39,794 bases of DNA from Pseudomonadota bacterium (GCA_043798385.1 JAZDOU010000426.1:1-39794); one strand, 5' to 3'. Counted from the first letter of the stretch, positions 5,476 to 38,119 are shown. Notes: generated by a model not told the origin, from the sequence alone. Program-made: numbers and translations.

Positions 5476-5743
5476 CTTGGCCGTGCATCCTTTCTCGAAT
5501 CAACGCCACCAAAGTCCTTGGTCTAAAGACGAGCATTAGAGATGAATACGACACAAACTGCATTATTTACCGCTGCTTCCTTCCAGACCTGACGGGGTTC
5601 ATAACCGTTTGTTGCGTATCGTCCAATCCTGACCTTAGAAAAGGGTCCTTTGCTGTCGTTAGAATCCTCAAAAGGAGATTCTGCCCCGCATAAGCGGATT
5701 TCGGGTACAGGGCACCGCCAGCTCCCCGCTTAGCACGGCCAAG
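5476..5743 (-). ncRNA. ffs: Large (Alu-domain-containing, Bacillus scRNA-like) signal recognition particle RNA
   Basis: Minus strand contains the SRP helix-8 core GAACCCCGTCAGGTCTGGAAGGAAGCAGCG. The 5' end CTTGGCCGTGCTAAGCGGGGAGCTGGCGGTGCCCTGTACCCG resembles large bacterial SRP Alu domains. An 11-bp terminal helix (CTTGGCCGTGC/GCACGGCCAAG) closes about 268 nt. Confidence 0.93.
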
Positions 5744-6102: not shown

Positions 6103-6170
6103 GAACTTTTCATGTTGATTTTTATTAAGAGGTGAGATATGAACTGGTTTAAAAAAATAGAGGGGAAAAG

Positions 6171-7256
6171 ATGAACATTAAAAAATCGATTCAGGATCTG
6201 ATCCCATATCCTCCCGGGAAACCCATTGAAGAATTAACTCGGGAATATGGCATTCAAGAAGTGATCAAACTGGCATCCAACGAAAACCCGATTGGACCTT
6301 CCCCTCAGGCACTCCGGGCGATCCGGCGGGCCTTATCGAACCTTCATCGCTATCCGGATGGAAGCGGCTATTATTTAAAACAGGCCCTCGCTCGGTTTTT
6401 AAAGTTGAAGCCGGAACAAATTGTCTTGGGGAATGGTTCCAATGAAATTATCGAATTGGCCTTGCGAACCTTCCTAAGGCCGGGTTTTGAAGTGTTATCG
6501 CCTACCCCCTCTTTTCTGGTGTATGGAAAGGCGGTTCAGGCCATGGGAGGAAAGAGTATTCTGATACCGCTGAAGCGATTCAGAATTGATTTGGATGCGA
6601 TTCTGGACCGGATTGGTCCTCGAACCCAAATGATCATTATCAACAACCCCAATAACCCAACCGGGACTATAATCAAAAGGAAGGAATGGGAGCGGTTCTT
6701 AAAGGCCGTTCCGGCCCGGATTATGATCCTTTTGGATGAAGCCTATATTGACTTTGTGGAAGATCCTGAGTGCCCATTAGGGGTTGACTATCTGAATTCC
6801 TCCCAACCTCTTTTAGTTATTCGAACTTTTTCAAAGGCTTATGGATTGGCCGGGCTTCGGATCGGCTATGGACTGACCCAGGCCGACTTGGCTGATTATA
6901 TAAACCGGGTTCGACAGCCCTTTAATGTGAATTCTCTGGCCCAGGCCGGTGCCTTGGGGGCCTTAAATGATCAGGTCTTCTATGAAAATACCCGGACCCT
7001 GGTTCGAAAGGGCAAGAAAGACCTGGAAAGAGGATTGGAACGTCTGGGGCTTTTCTATGTGCCTTCAGAAACCAATTTTATTCTGATAAGGGTTCCTCAA
7101 CAGGCCCAGGCCGTCTATGAGGCCATGTTAAAGAAGGGGGTTATTATCCGATCGATGAGAAGTTATGACCTGGGAGATTACATCCGGGTGAATGTTGGGC
7201 TTCCGGAAGAAAACCGGCGTTTTTTACAGGTTTTGAAACAGGTGATTGAAAAATAG
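6171..7256 (+). CDS. hisC: Histidinol-phosphate aminotransferase
   Basis: 'IKLASNENP', 'GNGSNEII', 'NPNNPTG', 'DEAY', PLP lysine motif 'RTFSKAYGLAGLRIGY'. Confidence 0.96.
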   Translation: MNIKKSIQDLIPYPPGKPIEELTREYGIQEVIKLASNENPIGPSPQALRAIRRALSNLHRYPDGSGYYLKQALARFLKLKPEQIVLGNGSNEIIELALRTFLRPGFEVLSPTPSFLVYGKAVQAMGGKSILIPLKRFRIDLDAILDRIGPRTQMIIINNPNNPTGTIIKRKEWERFLKAVPARIMILLDEAYIDFVEDPECPLGVDYLNSSQPLLVIRTFSKAYGLAGLRIGYGLTQADLADYINRVRQPFNVNSLAQAGALGALNDQVFYENTRTLVRKGKKDLERGLERLGLFYVPSETNFILIRVPQQAQAVYEAMLKKGVIIRSMRSYDLGDYIRVNVGLPEENRRFLQVLKQVIEK

Positions 7257-7263
7257 GATTTCT

Positions 7264-7298
7264 TCTAACCTTGAACGTTGAACATTGAACCTTGAACC
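7264..7298. repeat. Tandem heptamer array (TTGAACN)x4 plus one degenerate unit
   Basis: tctaacc ttgaacg ttgaaca ttgaacc ttgaacc between hisC and cmk. Confidence 0.85.
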
Positions 7299-7312
7299 GT
7301 TTTTTTATATCA

Positions 7313-8014
7313 ATGACCAAACCCAAAATCATCATCACCATCGACGGCCCTGCCGGGGCGGGAAAAAGCACCATCACCAGGTTGTTGGCCCAACAATTGG
7401 GGTTGGATTGTCTGGATACCGGGGCCATGTATCGGGTGGTGGCCTGGGTGCTTAGAGAAGAGAAAAAAGAGGAATGGTCAGGAGAAGGATTGGCCCTTTT
7501 TTTAAAGGATTTGGATTTTACTATTGAAGGGACCGGACCTGCCCAAAAGGTCCGGGTTGACGGCCTCGATGTGAGTCAAGAGATTCGAACCCCGGAGATT
7601 AGTCAACTGGCCTCGGCCATTTCTATGAAACCAGAAGTCCGGTCCTTTTTAGCCGAAAAGCAGAAGGCCTATGGGAGCCGGGGGGGCCTAATTGCTGAAG
7701 GAAGAGATATGGGGACCGTTATTTTTCCCCAGGCCGACTATAAATTTTTTTTAGAGGCCTCTTTGGAGGTCCGGGCTCATAGAAGGTTCCAGGAGCTGAC
7801 TCAAAAAGGACAATCGGTTTCCTTCGAAGAAGTGAAACAGGACATGGAGGCCCGGGATCGGCAGGACCAAGAGAGGGCCTTGGCTCCCCTTCGTCCTGCC
7901 CAGGATGCTCATGTCGTCAATACGACTCAAATGTCGATCGAAGAAGTGGTAAAATTAATCTGTTCAAAGCTTATTCAATTTTATCCGGATTTAAAGATTT
8001 CCGGCCTAAGTTAG
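7313..8014 (+). CDS. cmk: Cytidylate kinase
   Basis: 'ITIDGPAGAGKST', 'LDTGAMYR', 'EGRDMGTVIFP', 'RDRQD'. ATG at 7313 preferred because the ORF-track TTG at 7292 lies inside the heptamer repeat. Confidence 0.96.
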   Translation: MTKPKIIITIDGPAGAGKSTITRLLAQQLGLDCLDTGAMYRVVAWVLREEKKEEWSGEGLALFLKDLDFTIEGTGPAQKVRVDGLDVSQEIRTPEISQLASAISMKPEVRSFLAEKQKAYGSRGGLIAEGRDMGTVIFPQADYKFFLEASLEVRAHRRFQELTQKGQSVSFEEVKQDMEARDRQDQERALAPLRPAQDAHVVNTTQMSIEEVVKLICSKLIQFYPDLKISGLS

Positions 8015-8041
8015 CTACAAGTAAGGGCGCTGGAATTAAAC

Positions 8042-8070
8042 TTGATTTTTATGAATATTTTTGATAAGCT
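8042..8070 (+). promoter_or_regulatory. Putative sigma70 promoter for rpsA
   Basis: TTGATT-17 nt-TAAGCT with TG extended -10. Confidence 0.5.
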
Positions 8071-8113
8071 TCATTAATTAACGATAAACGCCAACTAAAT
8101 CTATTTGAAATTT

Positions 8114-8423
8114 AGGTGTCTGGGGGTCTTGTTTTTGGAGTTGTCCAAAGGGTAACTAAGAGCCCAAAACCCGGCCCGAATAGCCTAATTTGATTAAGAG
8201 CAGGGCATTCACCTCTCGGCTTCCGGCCGATCGGCTATGCCGATCTCTTGGGGAGATTCCTGGAGGGATCGGACAGGAAGCCTCGTTTAAGGTCGGCAAA
8301 GCCGACCGACCTATTTCTATCTCGGGTGTAGGCCTGCTTTTGAATCAAGTTCAGCTTTTGGCCTGGCAAAGAAGCTCATGGCCTATGGGTGGACAACTCC
8401 AAAAACAAGACCCCCAGACACCT
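8114..8423. repeat. Structured element E1: perfect 34-bp terminal inverted repeat enclosing several GC-rich hairpins
   Basis: 8114-8147 AGGTGTCTGGGGGTCTTGTTTTTGGAGTTGTCCA is the exact reverse complement of 8390-8423; homologous to 37754-37974. Confidence 0.9.
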
Positions 8424-8561
8424 GATTTCAAGTTAGAGATAAATTTTCAAATTGTAGAGCGACTAAAGAGGGAACACGGATTGAGTAGAAGAGGGGTTGG
8501 ATGGACCAGCGGTTCCCCGCATTTGAAGAGAAAAAAAGAAGTTTAGGGGGAAAAAAGGTTA

Positions 8562-10346
8562 ATGGAAAATAGGACAGAGGAAAAGGGCAACCAAGAACAC
8601 GAAACTACAGCCAAAGAGATGACCGTCTTAAGTGAGAAGTCTCAGGGGATTCAAGGGGAAGAGGAATTTAAAGAACTCTATGAGGAAAGCCTGAAGACGT
8701 TTCAGGAAGGGGAAGTGGTCAAGGGAAGGATCGTCAGTATTGACAAGGAATTTGTGATGATCGATATCGGCTATAAATCGGAAGGCCGTATTCCCATCCA
8801 GGAATTTTTGACTCCCGGGGGAGAGGTACAGGCCCTGGTCGGTGAATCGGTGGACGTCCTGATTGAAAAACGGGACGATGAAGAAGGGGATATCCTCCTT
8901 TCCAAAGAACGGGCCGCCAAGATCCTGGTTTGGGACGAAATAAGCCGAATTTATCGTGACGATGGGGTGATTGAGGGTAAGATTGTCGGGAAAGTCAAAG
9001 GTGGACTTACGGTTGATATCGGCCTGCCCGCTTTTCTTCCGGGGTCTCAGATAGACTTGCAGCCGGTTCGCGATATGGATAATTTATTAGAGGCCACTTT
9101 TCCGTTTAAGATACTAAAATACAACAAAAAAAGAAATAACGTGGTTCTCTCCCGCCGGGCTCTGCTGGAAAAGGAACGGGAAGAACAAAGGAATTCTATT
9201 TTAAACACTATCGAAAACGGCCAGATCCTGGAAGGAATGGTGAAGAATATTACCGATTACGGGATCTTTATCGATCTGGGCGGAATCGATGGGTTACTGC
9301 ATGTTACCGATATGGGTTGGGGCCGGGCCGGCCATCCCTCCGAGACCTGTAAAGTGGGAGAAATTATTAAGGTCAAGGTTTTAAATTTTGACCGGGACCG
9401 TCATCGGGTTTCATTAGGATTGAAGCAACTCTACCCTGATCCCTGGATTTCGGTGGTTGAGCGATACCCCCTCGGCCATAAAGTTAAGGGGAAGATCGTC
9501 AACTTGACTGATTACGGGGCCTTTGTAGAATTAGAAAATGGGGTGGAAGGGTTAATTCATGTTTCTGAGATGTCTTGGACCCAAAAGGTCAAACATCCTT
9601 CCAAGATTGTTTCAGTGGGGGAAGTCGTTGAGGCCCTGGTTTTGTCTGTGGACCCGGATAAGAAAAGAATATCCTTAGGTATGAAACAGGTTGAGCCCAA
9701 TCCCTGGGATGTGATTGCAGAAAAATATCCGGTTGGAACAATCATTGAAGGAAAAATAAAAAATATTACCGATTTCGGCCTTTTTATAGGTATTGACGAA
9801 GGGATTGACGGTCTGGTTCACATTTCGGATATTTCCTGGATCAAGCGGGTGAAACACCCTTCGGAGTTATACAAAAAGGGGCAGGAGATCCAGGCCAAGG
9901 TCCTGCATATCGATAAAGAACAGGAACGGTTTTCATTAGGGATCAAGCAACTGGCCACCGATCCCTGGGAGGAGATCCCTAAAAAATATCCCACCGGATC
10001 GGTCGTTAGTGGGGTTATCACCAATGTGACCGATTTTGGGATATTTGTCGAGATCGAAGAAGGGGTAGAAGGACTGGTCCATGTCTCGGAGGCCAGTAAG
10101 GAGAAGATTAAGACCCCCGTCGGGCTATTTAAGGTGGGGGAGTCGATCATGGCCAAGGTAATCAATATCGCCAAGAAAGAAAGGAAAATAGGTCTTTCCG
10201 TCCGGCGGGCGAAAAAAGAAGAAGAGCAGACCATGATCAAGGAATATATGAATAGTTCCAAAGAGGCCAGTTCCAATCTGGGCGATTTGCTCCGAGAGGA
10301 GATGGAAAATAAAATCAAATTTTCCCTGGATTCGGTTGAATCCTAA
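8562..10346 (+). CDS. rpsA: 30S ribosomal protein S1
   Basis: Repeated S1 domains ('DIGYKSEG', 'VKNITDYGIFIDLGGIDGLLHVTD', 'GVEGLIHVSEMSW'). Confidence 0.98.
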   Translation: MENRTEEKGNQEHETTAKEMTVLSEKSQGIQGEEEFKELYEESLKTFQEGEVVKGRIVSIDKEFVMIDIGYKSEGRIPIQEFLTPGGEVQALVGESVDVLIEKRDDEEGDILLSKERAAKILVWDEISRIYRDDGVIEGKIVGKVKGGLTVDIGLPAFLPGSQIDLQPVRDMDNLLEATFPFKILKYNKKRNNVVLSRRALLEKEREEQRNSILNTIENGQILEGMVKNITDYGIFIDLGGIDGLLHVTDMGWGRAGHPSETCKVGEIIKVKVLNFDRDRHRVSLGLKQLYPDPWISVVERYPLGHKVKGKIVNLTDYGAFVELENGVEGLIHVSEMSWTQKVKHPSKIVSVGEVVEALVLSVDPDKKRISLGMKQVEPNPWDVIAEKYPVGTIIEGKIKNITDFGLFIGIDEGIDGLVHISDISWIKRVKHPSELYKKGQEIQAKVLHIDKEQERFSLGIKQLATDPWEEIPKKYPTGSVVSGVITNVTDFGIFVEIEEGVEGLVHVSEASKEKIKTPVGLFKVGESIMAKVINIAKKERKIGLSVRRAKKEEEQTMIKEYMNSSKEASSNLGDLLREEMENKIKFSLDSVES

Positions 10347-16359: not shown

Positions 16360-16449
16360 GTTCAAAGCTGGAAGCTTTAAGCTCAAAGTTTCTAGTTTGG
16401 GCTTTTTTTCAGATTTTAAACCCGTAACCCGCAACTCGAAACCCGTAAC
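16360..16449. repeat. Two heptamer arrays (GCTNNAA-like; AACCCGN-like)
   Basis: gttcaaa gctggaa gctttaa gctcaaa ...; aacccgt aacccgc aactcga aacccgt. Confidence 0.7.
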
Positions 16450-16511
16450 AGAATAAATTTGAAATCTCTCTGGTTGGTCTTCAACACTACCAAGTAAGAC
16501 CGAAAGCGTCG

Positions 16512-18227
16512 ATGATTGATCAACTTCAAATTGGTAATGTGGCCCTTATCGATCGGGCCAGCCTTTCTTTTTCACGGGGATTAAATATCTTTTCCGGAGA
16601 AACCGGGGCTGGGAAATCAATACTTATCAAGGCTGTAAATCTTCTTTTAGGAGAAAAACCGACTCCTGACACTATTCGTCAAGGAGCTGAGGAGGCCTGG
16701 GTAGAGGCCCTGTTTTCTCTTCCTTCCCATCACCCGGTAACCGGATTACTGGAATCCCTTGGCCTGTCGGCCGAGGAACAAATCCTGATTAAACGGACGG
16801 TCCAGCCCAGCGGAAAAAGCCGCGCCTGGATCAATGGAAGTTTGGTCAGCCAGTCAGTATTGAGCCGGGTAACCCGCTCCTTAATGGGTATCTCCAACCA
16901 GCATGAACATCAATCGTTGTTGAACCCGATCCAACATCTTTATCTCCTGGACCGCTTCGGCGGTTTGATTCCCTTGCGGCAGGAAGTTCAGAGTCAATTT
17001 GCGGCCCTGCAAGGCCTGATTAATGCCTGGCAAGCGCTCAGGGAGAAAGAAGAGCAACGAAAGAGCCAGAAAGACTTGTGGCTTTTTCAGACCCAGGAGA
17101 TCGACCAGGCCAATCTCCATTCCGGAGAAGATGTGGCCTGTCAACAGCGGAAACGGGTTCTCCTGCAGGCAGAAAAGATCTGGGAGAAGATTCATCAGGC
17201 CCAGCAGGGTTTATCTGAGGAGGAACATTCCTGTCTGAACACCCTGTCTCGAGCCAAGGACCTGATCCGATCGGTGACCGCTATAGATCCCGATCTTCAG
17301 CCGTTGTTTCAGGATTTGGAAAGCTTACAAATGCAGTTGTCCGAGATCACCACCGGTTTACGGGATTACCTCTCCCGCCTGGTTTTTGATCCCCAAATTC
17401 TGGAACAGGTTGAGGAACGGCTGGAGCGGATTCAGAGACTGACCGCCAAATACGGCCCCACCGTTGAGGACGTTCTGGGTTACCGTTCTCAGCTTGAAAA
17501 AAATTTACAGGCCGGGGAAGATCAAGTCGTTGAGCTCAAAGAGTTGGAAAAAGAGATCCAGGCAGGACGGAGACATCTTTTTGAAACCTCCCTTGATTTG
17601 TCCAGTCAGAGAAAAAAGGTGGCTTTGGATTTGAACTCTCAGGTTGAGGCCGAGTTGCAGGGATTGGGAATGGGCGGGTGTCAATTCCAGGTGATCTTTT
17701 CCCCCCTGACTTCCGAGCAGGAGGCCGATGAAACAACCCTTCATGAAGGAACCGTATTGAGTCAGGACGGCCTGGAAAAAGGGGAGTTTTATATCGCTCC
17801 CAATTTGGGTGAAGGTCTACGGCCCTTGGCCCGAATTGCCTCCGGGGGAGAACTCTCCAGGATTTTATTGGTCCTCAAGGGGTTACTGTCCCGTCAGGAT
17901 TCCCTGGAGACCTTGATTTTTGATGAAGTGGATTCGGGCATTGGAGGAAGTCTGGGCCAGGCCGTGGGACAGAAGCTGCGTCGATTGTCCCAAGCCCATC
18001 AAGTCGTTTGTATTACCCATCTTCCCCAGATCGCCGCCTTTGCCGAGACCCATTTTCAGGTAGTTAAAGAGACCCGGAAACAGCGGACCCAGACTAAAAT
18101 CCTCCGGCTTCAACAGGAAGAACAGGTTAAAGAAATGGCCCGGATGCTGGGGGGATCTTCGACTTCTTCAAAGACCTTGTCGGTAGCCCGGGAGATGTTG
18201 AATCAGGCCAGGAAACATCAGGAATGA
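16512..18227 (+). CDS. recN: DNA repair protein RecN
   Basis: Walker A 'SGETGAGKSIL', 'IASGGELSR', 'LIFDEVDSGIGG', 'VVCITHLPQIAA'. Confidence 0.97.
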   Translation: MIDQLQIGNVALIDRASLSFSRGLNIFSGETGAGKSILIKAVNLLLGEKPTPDTIRQGAEEAWVEALFSLPSHHPVTGLLESLGLSAEEQILIKRTVQPSGKSRAWINGSLVSQSVLSRVTRSLMGISNQHEHQSLLNPIQHLYLLDRFGGLIPLRQEVQSQFAALQGLINAWQALREKEEQRKSQKDLWLFQTQEIDQANLHSGEDVACQQRKRVLLQAEKIWEKIHQAQQGLSEEEHSCLNTLSRAKDLIRSVTAIDPDLQPLFQDLESLQMQLSEITTGLRDYLSRLVFDPQILEQVEERLERIQRLTAKYGPTVEDVLGYRSQLEKNLQAGEDQVVELKELEKEIQAGRRHLFETSLDLSSQRKKVALDLNSQVEAELQGLGMGGCQFQVIFSPLTSEQEADETTLHEGTVLSQDGLEKGEFYIAPNLGEGLRPLARIASGGELSRILLVLKGLLSRQDSLETLIFDEVDSGIGGSLGQAVGQKLRRLSQAHQVVCITHLPQIAAFAETHFQVVKETRKQRTQTKILRLQQEEQVKEMARMLGGSSTSSKTLSVAREMLNQARKHQE

Positions 18228-19164: not shown

Positions 19165-19241
19165 CGGGACGTAGCGCAGTCTGGTAGCGCACCTGAATGG
19201 GGTTCAGGGGGCCGCTGGTTCAAATCCAGTCGTCCCGACCA
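19165..19241 (+). tRNA. tRNA-Pro (anticodon GGG)
   Basis: CGGGACG...CGTCCCG-ACCA acceptor stem, D arm GCGCAGTCTGGTAGCGC, anticodon arm CCTGA-ATGGGGT-TCAGG, T arm GCTGGTTCAAATCCAGT; 77 nt with encoded CCA. Confidence 0.98.
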
Positions 19242-37637: not shown

Positions 37638-37695
37638 AGGGCAGTAATTGATAGACTCGTAAAAAGTCATCAATTTTTGAAGAAAGAAATTTTTA

Positions 37696-37999
37696 GAGGT
37701 TGTCCCAAAGTTACGTGATCTTGCTGCTCTGGGAAAAACTATTGAGTGTGTCCAGAGGCATCTGGGGGTATTGATTTTGATGATTGTCCACCTAAACGTC
37801 AGGGTCCAAAAACGAGTCGGGAGTCTCAGGTTTAAATTTCAAGCAGGCCAACACCAAAGCTTTTTCTCTCTGGGATGAATTCCTGGCTTCAGACTAACTT
37901 AGAAATCAGGGCCGGGTTCGGGCGATGGACTCCCCTTTGGACAATCCTCAAAATCGATACCCCCAGATGCCTCTTAGCACGTAACTTTGGGACATTCCC
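37696..37999. mobile_element. Non-autonomous element with IS1182-like ends that contains structured element E2
   Basis: Perfect 17-bp IR TGTCCCAAAGTTACGTG (37701-37717) / CACGTAACTTTGGGACA (37978-37994); inner 37-bp IR at 37754-37790 / 37938-37974. Confidence 0.7.
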
Positions 38000-38119
38000 C
38001 ACAATTAACTCTCACCCGAGGGAGAATTCGTTACGGATAAAAGGATTGAAAAAACTTTAGGATTCGATTATCGTTAATTTTCTAAATCTGAAAAAATGCT
38101 TAAAAGGAAAATCGCACGA

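Follow-up and report, generated by a model that had tools for sequence, protein, structure and literature searches.

In enterobacteria, BIMEs are mosaics of palindromic modules in intergenic space, and ERIC sequences are imperfect long palindromes that are transcribed. The Correia elements of Neisseria have terminal inverted repeats of conserved sequence and a TA duplication, and elements of the IS5 group duplicate a short YTAR-like target. Outward promoters at the ends of Correia elements, and RNA hairpins that are bound or cut by RNase III, are described in the sections of the Correia literature used here (PMC2649163). REPINs are hairpins formed by doublets of REP sequences and are moved by Y1 transposases of the REP-associated tyrosine transposase (RAYT) type; compensatory changes in them are called ‘common’ in the relevant part of Bertels & Rainey (2011; PMC3116915). 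For the ‘peel and paste’ properties of IS200/IS605 and IS608 we draw on parts of three articles (PMC3201880, PMC5934647 and PMC5027513). Here we describe E1, a 372-bp unit between cmk (cytidylate kinase) and rpsA (ribosomal protein S1) on a 39,794-nt contig of a bacterial genome assembly (JAZDOU010000426.1 of GCA_043798385.1, contig C8 in our numbering); this whole stretch is the window, and positions are counted from its first letter. Very probably, E1 is a copy of a mobile repeat that is non-coding, non-autonomous and abundant in an uncultured Thermodesulfobacteriota lineage, and not a gene-specific regulator. A literature search, which was not exhaustive, did not find the E1 family described and returned nothing that combined transposable elements of the miniature inverted-repeat type (MITEs) with Deltaproteobacteria and promoters.

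None of the defined families tested accommodates the E1 family, which in behaviour is nearest to hairpin elements of the REPIN/IS200 type. Its likeness to REPIN-type hairpins is greater than that to classical MITEs because the two arms of its stem co-vary. Like REPINs, the repeats are non-coding, intergenic, present in dozens of copies and vertically persistent in their lineage; they form a long hairpin with frequent compensatory changes on both sides, and Y1 or RAYT-like genes occur in the genomes. However, E1-family units measure 270–372 bp, compared with about 70–110 bp for REPINs, and their conservation peaks in the interior (TTGTCCAAAGG/TGGACAA plus further motifs) and at two unlike end modules, X and Y, not at two inverted REPs of 16–25 nt as in REPINs. 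No RAYT-like gene is flanked by E1-family repeats, and the RAYT-like proteins found here, which are multi-copy and in one of two cases scanned carry a DnaA-like helix-turn-helix (HTH), do not reach the NCBIfam cut-off. With IS200/IS605 elements (including the non-autonomous PATEs), as portrayed in the articles cited above, the family seems to have in common dissimilar ends with small subterminal palindromes (read from the sequence, CAAA-GATA-TTTG in X and GAGA-TAAAT-TCTC in Y), a wealth of hairpins, insertion beside a specific tetranucleotide and no clear duplication at the one known empty site. In contrast, no full-length insertion sequence (IS), and no IS bearing tnpA or tnpB, with X/Y ends was seen in the genome, the long end-to-end stem is not among the IS200/IS605 features given in those parts, and the target of E1 is CCAA, not CTAA. 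Correia elements are likewise small inverted-repeat elements in leaders and intergenic space and, on the sections cited, would be the best model for an effect of E1 on rpsA mRNA; their sequence and host are unrelated, whereas the arms of the E1 family vary and co-vary and no duplication was seen. The family resembles classical MITEs in being small, non-coding and present in many copies, but its inverted-repeat arms are not conserved in sequence and its true termini, X and Y, are dissimilar. BIMEs and ERIC, which the family may resemble in form as mosaics of palindromic modules or long imperfect palindromes, differ in that the E1-family modules are nested tip-in-tip and not set side by side. 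An integron attC site was considered and rejected: ATCTAAC and GTTAGAG are present, but the first spans the junction, the second lies ~40 nt inside the right end, and the copies are dispersed 5′ of housekeeping genes and not in cassette arrays.

Strain variation and spread of E1

Contigs from four DNA runs, X1–X4 (groundwater metagenomes according to their records, with two studies for X1, X2 and X4), were compared with positions 7500–9300 of the window. Three of the four runs yielded empty-site contigs (X2, 860 nt, with 10 + 11 differing letters; X4, 3408 nt; X1, 211 nt), which link 8081 to 8465/8466 by 10–11 letters corresponding to 8083–8092. Run X3 has the filled allele: its contigs reach the left arm (to 8141) from the cmk side, and rpsA from the right arm (8394). 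In the empty allele ..AAAC(A/G)CC(A/G)A is joined directly to AGAGGG.., and the filled allele reads ..AAACGCCAA, then CTAAATCTATTTG...GTAGAGCGACTAA, then AGAGGG... The insertion point lies between ..CCAA and AGAGGG.., ~25 nt 3′ of the −10-like box of rpsA. The filled and empty alleles show that the 372-bp unit, with X and Y as its ends, moves whole and entered the rpsA leader as one piece, and that close strains retain the empty site. The contigs establish that both alleles exist, not their frequencies, and the assembly may derive from one of the runs. One point weighs against this interpretation: the empty alleles are metagenome contigs of strains that are 0–5% different, not of the same clone. 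There is only one filled/empty site pair. No empty allele was found within this assembly when it was searched by flank pairs.

E1 is also missing from the cmk–rpsA spacer in all 11 congeners and in both metagenome relatives. As it is lacking in congeners, metagenome relatives and near-identical strains, E1 is mobile and dispensable for rpsA. A reading made from the sequence alone, before this analysis (hereafter the sequence-only reading), had suggested an unrecognised non-coding RNA (ncRNA) recruited to S1 control, which the leaders without E1 do not support. It had also called for a search for empty sites and target-site duplications; the empty sites were found, but no clean duplication was seen. 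No target duplication of ≥3 bp is evident at E1, for which there is the one filled/empty pair, and the empty allele is without CTAA. The structure 5′ of rpsA should be annotated as a strain-variable insertion, not as an S1 leader or riboregulator.

BLAST of E1 against its own genome, a fragmented metagenome-assembled genome (MAG) of 4.2 Mb in 527 contigs with 7.6% contamination, gave 209 matches at 120 loci, 45 of which have both halves. Both invariant anchors, TTGTCCA ... TGGACAA, are present in 53 own-genome copies, whose arms are mostly paired; the usual copy has a core of ~200 bp. These numbers replace the two copies that the sequence-only reading had counted. Copies occur in both orientations and at non-orthologous positions. 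Twelve of 13 congeneric genomes have the family, as do 15 of 20 from the same taxonomic family, but none of 20 single genomes from other families of the phylum; exact arm matches were found in MAGs titled Thermodesulfobacteriota or ‘Deltaproteobacteria bacterium RBG_13_43_22’. The repeats probably explain part of the fragmentation of the assembly, because many copies lie at contig ends.

A second full X-core-Y element is located 5′ of recA (genome G000, contig C429, ~6105–6470; locus L154) and is confined to this genome among the 12 compared. It terminates ~45 nt before the start codon, and the upstream sequence of the congeners is displaced by 330 bp. Both rpsA and recA tolerate a hairpin element of 300–370 nt between the old upstream region and the start codon, and the two cases bear on RNase III processing and on promoter delivery by the Y end.

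Modules and paired arms

E1 is a nested mosaic made of the ends X and Y, a stem that varies between subfamilies, a ~190-bp core with invariant motifs, and a cassette at the tip. Its parts, and the second family member in the window, E2, are as follows.

8095–8466, + strand: E1, whole inserted unit, 372 bp; ends ± 1–2 nt owing to A runs; placed by contig junctions and by ortholog and copy alignments
8095–8113, + strand: left end module X of E1, a degenerate form of CCAAAGATATTTGAAATT; aligned to copies C282, C331, C445 and C10
8114–8147, + strand: left arm, perfect 34-bp stem; the outer 8 nt vary by subfamily, the inner part is GGGGGTCTTGTTTTTGGAGTTGTCCA
8148–8213, + strand: core interior, left half (AAAGGG.., CCGGCC, ..GCAGGGCATTCACC); invariant or near-invariant columns of the 35-copy alignment A1
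8214–8309, + strand: nested double-hairpin cassette, long form; GGCTTCC 8218–8224 ... GGAAGCC 8276–8282, then GGTCGGC-AAA-GCCGACC 8291–8307
8226–8275, + strand: extra block of ~50 nt inside the loop of the first cassette hairpin; contig joint 8224/8225 to 8276
8310–8389, + strand: core interior, right half (GGCCTGCT, TTTGGCCYGGCAAAGAAGCTCATGGC); alignment A1
8390–8423, + strand: right arm, perfect 34-bp stem; repeat finder and direct comparison
8424–8466, + strand: right end module Y of E1, truncated (..AAGTTAGAGATAAATTTTCAAAT..GAGCGACTAA); aligned to C10, C331 and C418, without the TAAGAAT box that other copies have
37693–38001, − strand: E2, full unit, 309 bp; it belongs to a young subfamily that has the core anchors of E1 but different arms and end modules, and its core is inverted relative to E1

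The unit starts with CTAA.. and finishes with ..CTAA, and is flanked by ..GCCAA and AGAGGG... Positions 8114–8147 are the exact reverse complement of 8390–8423 (34/34), as the sequence-only reading had said, and the five small hairpins that it listed are all in place (starts at 8216, 8231, 8244, 8257/8274 and 8291). The repeat finder lengthens the arms to 8100–8147 / 8390–8437 (48 nt, 88%); 8100–8437, the limits first given for the element, proved too narrow for the inserted unit of ~8095–8466, and those of E2 likewise for a unit of 37693–38001. Folded as RNA, 8095–8466 reaches −181.9 kcal/mol, compared with −111.6 ± 6.2 in 100 shuffles; with z = −11.4, the structure is far above chance. The family went unrecognised in the sequence-only reading, and Rfam agrees: neither E1 nor E2 gave a match at the gathering thresholds, and the best matches of a relaxed search of 8000–8600 (E 3.3 and 9.3) were not usable.

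The X consensus, CCAAAGATATTTGAAATT, mostly has CTAA directly before it and occurs 19–39 times per genome in five relatives, against 0–2 times for the reversed control (the X search pattern included CTAA). Inward of X, the outer stem differs among subfamilies (for example GTCATAG/CTATGAC, GTGTCT/AGACAC or GGTTTA/TAAACC), and the inner stem terminates in the invariant GTTGTCCA / TGGACAAC. AAAGG, CCGGCC, GGCCTGCT and GGCCCGGCAAAGAAG are invariant motifs of the core interior in alignment A1. The right module Y is AAGTTAGAGATAAATTCTCAGAT-N9-TAAGAATCTAA.

The cassette at 8214–8309 (96 nt) is absent in copies C282, C331, C445 and C394, and joints in the contigs of the DNA runs lead from 8210/8213 to 8310. 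It consists of GGCTTCC-loop-GGAAGCC followed by GGTCGGC-AWA-GCCGACC and was found in 36 own-genome places with adequate flank, across three repeat families: 10 are in E1-family cores (seven short forms and three long forms, including E1), 23 in another repeat of ~130 bp and three in a third repeat. The short cassette has ~47 nt (GGCTTCC-GAAK-GGAAGCC ... GGTCGGC-AWA-GCCGACC), and in the long form the first loop is ~50 nt longer. Other palindromic cargo, such as heptamer repeats, is likewise found between X and Y. In relatives, the X–Y gap is just 8–21 nt at four loci (L144–L147), and at four others (L148, L149, L152 and L153) the core is missing and X and Y enclose no more than the short outer palindrome GGTGTAGGGGG.CCCCCTACACC. 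The layers and the shared cassette come close to the earlier idea of a MITE family with variable hairpin cargo. A second abundant repeat of ~130 bp (TTAGTWCGAAAATAG ... GACGGCTTAG) is often tandem (C310:12100–12260, C440:3700–3880, C373:8470–8640); read on the opposite strand, it also terminates in CTAA.

The E2 subfamily comprises ~15 copies with 96–98% identity (eight full copies aligned). The E2 arms, 37754–37790 / 37938–37974, pair at 35 of 37 positions, as the sequence-only reading had it, and the inner motifs TTGTCCAAAGG, CCGGCC and GGCCTGCT are common to E1 and E2 in alignment A1. The central hairpins of E1, most of which that reading found lacking in E2, belong to the separate cassette 8214–8309, which is absent from most copies of the E1 subfamily as well. 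Among the E2 copies (C428:23899–24207 and others), one has a perfect 9-bp direct repeat (TAACCTTTG) and six of seven are without a direct repeat; the remaining copies have a TTAA-like motif 4–6 nt past one end.

To compare the arms, 65 distinct copies from five genomes were anchored on the invariant heptamers and aligned gap-free; 53 are from the own genome, and 12 passed the filter among 20 fetched from six other species. Pairing within a copy was 0.91–1.00 at positions −33 to −9 (25 arm positions; 94% at variable positions), whereas arms taken from different copies paired at 0.28–0.97, and at ~0.3–0.5 where the position is variable. All four Watson–Crick pairs were seen at several arm positions. 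Alignment A1 contains the 35 of these copies that are of canonical length (25 own, 10 from four other genomes). Its RNAalifold consensus stem has 30 pairs, 13 of them with compensatory changes; 96.7% of cells were paired compared with 85.4% after shuffling, 129 cells compared with 38.8 were changed on both sides, and the covariation score was 0.360 compared with 0.148 (0 of 500 shuffles as high; slid controls, 0.03–0.10). Because copies share descent in subfamilies, there were fewer independent events than these figures imply, but distinct, internally complementary arm types are numerous despite the shared descent. The arms truly co-vary across copies, as the sequence-only reading had claimed from two, which is unusual for repeats of such a kind. 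Apart from one invariant GGCC/GGCC pairing, the alignment does not support a conserved helix in the interior. Duplication of a TA or palindromic target at the GGGGG/CCCCC boundary was dropped as a candidate, the flanks there being a further variable part of the stem.

How the element may move

We propose that the element must fold to a hairpin for copying, most likely as single-stranded DNA, and that only masters with compensated arms would spread, as proposed for REPINs, so that arms co-vary. An enzyme supplied in trans would then insert the element beside a CTAA-like tetranucleotide. Arms of quasi-palindromes can be corrected against each other by template switching, and correction of this sort during replication may be an alternative to selection. 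In most copies the left flank is CTAA and the last four bases are CTAA too, and Y and X stand head to tail with one shared CTAA in contig C282 and in a relative (G010). A single-strand mechanism of the IS200/IS605–RAYT type is suggested because the ends are unlike, the flank equals the last four bases, there is no clean duplication and the hairpins are compensated. Tentatively, we regard an IS200/IS605- or RAYT-type Y1 (HUH) transposase, acting on single strands and dependent on the hairpin, as the mover. Genes with a Y1_Tnp domain gave eight matches in the own genome and 7–20 in each of five relatives (G003, G007, G008, G010 and G016). Two proteins of ~330 aa resemble REP-associated tyrosine transposase at 64–67 bits, below the cut-off of 80, and one of the two RAYT-like Y1 proteins scanned has a DnaA-like C-terminal HTH. 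The Y1 genes of the own genome include C151:21361–22368, C227:210–1205, C344:4982–5941 and one on C81; other Y1 copies are of the ordinary IS200 type (145–189 aa), and none adjoins the repeats studied.

Several observations weigh against this model. E1 is flanked by CCAA instead of CTAA, and the recA element has CTGA at its flank and TTAA at its end. E2 copies have no conserved flank motif, and one of seven has the 9-bp direct repeat. X or Y was found at none of 38 Y1-gene loci, with a loose match, to the arm core only, at three, and no family repeat flanks the six own-genome Y1 genes tested; a search of the own genome gave no TnpB. There is no sign of a longer element in the 527 contigs, where arm pairs 0.33–5 kb apart, or X and Y 0.45–6 kb apart, occur only as neighbouring copies. 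The empty site of E1 is also compatible with a 4-bp duplication CCAA/CTAA with one mismatch, as made by a classical transposase. Transition mismatches on the X-to-Y strand are A.C in 38 cases and G.T in 18, a weak lean among copies that are not independent and that, if anything, favours the opposite strand. Finally, a functional structured RNA would likewise have invariant interior motifs enclosed by a co-varying stem.

The alternative of a classical MITE, that is, a deletion derivative of a DDE-type IS moved as double-stranded DNA by cut-and-paste, with binding of the terminal inverted repeats by the transposase and a YTAR-like (CTAA) 4-bp duplication, seems unlikely to us. The long terminal inverted repeats, CTAA at both flanks of most copies, the CCAA and CTAA flanks of E1 (explicable as a duplication of 4 bp in which one base changed later) and the direct repeat at one E2 copy would all suit it. 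But up to four Watson–Crick pair types are found per arm position and arm sequence is unconserved, and co-varying arms count against this mechanism because a DNA-binding transposase should fix the arm sequence. The outermost ends are dissimilar, the empty allele has no CTAA, no parent element with these arms or with X..Y was seen at the distances given above, and six of seven E2 copies lack the direct repeat. A structured ncRNA, multi-copy RNA gene or cis-regulatory leader, with a stem under RNA selection and E1 recruited for S1 control, would account for the strong stem co-variation, the invariant interior, the highly stable predicted fold and the sense orientation of E1 within the presumed rpsA leader. 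We nevertheless consider it highly improbable, given that the E1 site is polymorphic for presence in close strains and E1 is absent from all 13 relatives examined, that copies lie in either orientation and at non-orthologous places, and that the tip tolerates nested insertions of 96 and 50 nt. Rfam has no matching family, the interior pairing is limited to GGCC/GGCC, and mismatches of the G.U type are not favoured on the sense strand.

The host may instead keep the repeat as a portable cassette whose hairpin would insulate or terminate read-through and whose Y end (GTTAGAGATAAATTCTCAGAT-N9-TAAGAAT) would serve the next gene as an outward ‘mobile promoter’. Of 35 Y modules that bear TAAGAAT, 21 face a gene start, six a gene end and eight nothing within 400 nt (genes were crudely called as open reading frames (ORFs) of ≥150 aa; the distance from the end of the box to the first start codon was −7 to 129 nt). 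The element at recA, ending close to the start codon with the native upstream sequence displaced, fits this reading, as do the counts of Y in five relatives, with 22–64 copies in each genome compared with 0 of the reversed control, and the promoters that Correia elements generate at their ends according to the sections cited (PMC2649163). We think it somewhat unlikely all the same. The Y of E1 has no −10-like TAAGAAT box, so promoter delivery cannot explain E1; by sequence, there is no canonical −35 at 17 nt, strand-specific insertion could give the orientation bias, and the gene calls are long ORFs only. Lastly, E1 may represent an undescribed, hairpin-in-hairpin kind of mobile DNA, in which an X/Y unit of ~75 nt would insert by CTAA without duplication and grow by successive insertions at the tip (first the outer palindrome, followed by the 190-bp core, the cassette and finally the 50 nt), the folded single strand of DNA or RNA, marked by the invariant interior and freely co-varying stem of the core, being read by an enzyme, perhaps RAYT-like Y1 plus HTH, with Y as a portable promoter; we hold this to be improbable. 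Whichever enzyme moves E1, the question of what reads a hairpin instead of a sequence can be tested in an uncultured Thermodesulfobacteriota lineage with no fewer than 65 natural variants of the repeat, whose pairing is kept and interior fixed while the stem sequence drifts, and with one filled/empty pair.

The rpsA leader and neighbouring features

The insertion lies among the following features.

7292–8014, + strand: cmk, cytidylate kinase, the gene 5′ of E1; ORF with orthologs 65–77% identical in 11 congeners
8042–8070, + strand: promoter-like box of rpsA, 5′ of the insertion; TTGATT 8042–8047, 17-nt spacer, TAAGCT 8065–8070, proposed from conservation and position only
8562–10346, + strand: rpsA, ribosomal protein S1 (594 aa), the gene 3′ of E1; ORF whose initial 200 aa are 82–88% identical in 11 congeners

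A box CTTGATTTTTATGAATATT(T/A/C)TTGATA (window 8041–8066) is kept in the cmk–rpsA spacers of 11 of 11 congeners and at two metagenome loci, and the 3′ part of the rpsA leader up to the start codon is also kept in the 11 congeners. Its conservation and position suggest that 8042–8070 is a promoter. A scan of 7950–8600 for the sigma-70 consensus speaks against this, with no promoter-like site and the box uncalled; the same scan gave one terminator-like site, no excess over shuffles. E1 does lie between a conserved box and rpsA, as the sequence-only reading had placed it, but the promoter call itself was not reproduced. The sole ORF over E1 is an unconserved frame of 118 aa that extends beyond the element.

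We suggest that rpsA is still transcribed from the old promoter, reading through E1. If the box serves rpsA as its promoter, transcription of this essential mRNA has to pass through E1, which adds 372 nt with a perfect to near-perfect duplex of 34–48 bp near the 5′ end of the leader and leaves the conserved 3′ leader and Shine–Dalgarno region intact. By analogy with Correia elements, the long duplex stem in the leader would be a likely substrate of RNase III and might change mRNA stability. Since strains without E1 exist, its presence in the rpsA leader is probably an insertion accident, either tolerated or mildly useful, and not a conserved means of control. The cmk–rpsA spacers of other species (locus L047 in G010, L044/L045 in G005 and G006, L050 in G012) have different extra stretches of ~100–170 nt, which sit at or near the leader position of E1 or just 5′ of the rpsA promoter box. 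The rpsA leader may be a recurrent landing place for inserts.

Y resembles a portable promoter, though not in E1, where 8431–8466 is a truncated Y copy. It was multi-copy in six of six sampled genomes of the family and in two of two from one other family, among 201 genomes of the phylum sampled. Y as an orthologously conserved native promoter was ruled out for recA (0 of 11 congeners) and for rpsA. The motif GTTAGAGATAAATTCTCAGAT-N9-TAAGAATCTAA stands shortly 5′ of many unrelated genes (C331:587–630, C418:368–410, and on C283, C343 and C349). Elsewhere in the window, 16380–16480 (−) has an X-like module (CCAACCAGAGAGATTTCAAATTT) followed by heptamer repeats of the GTTACGGG type just 5′ of an ORF at 16512–18227, and looks like a further, partial member of the X–Y superfamily. 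The window also contains two ordinary RNA genes, for a large bacterial SRP RNA (5481–5738, −; 148 bits) and a tRNA (19165–19238, +).

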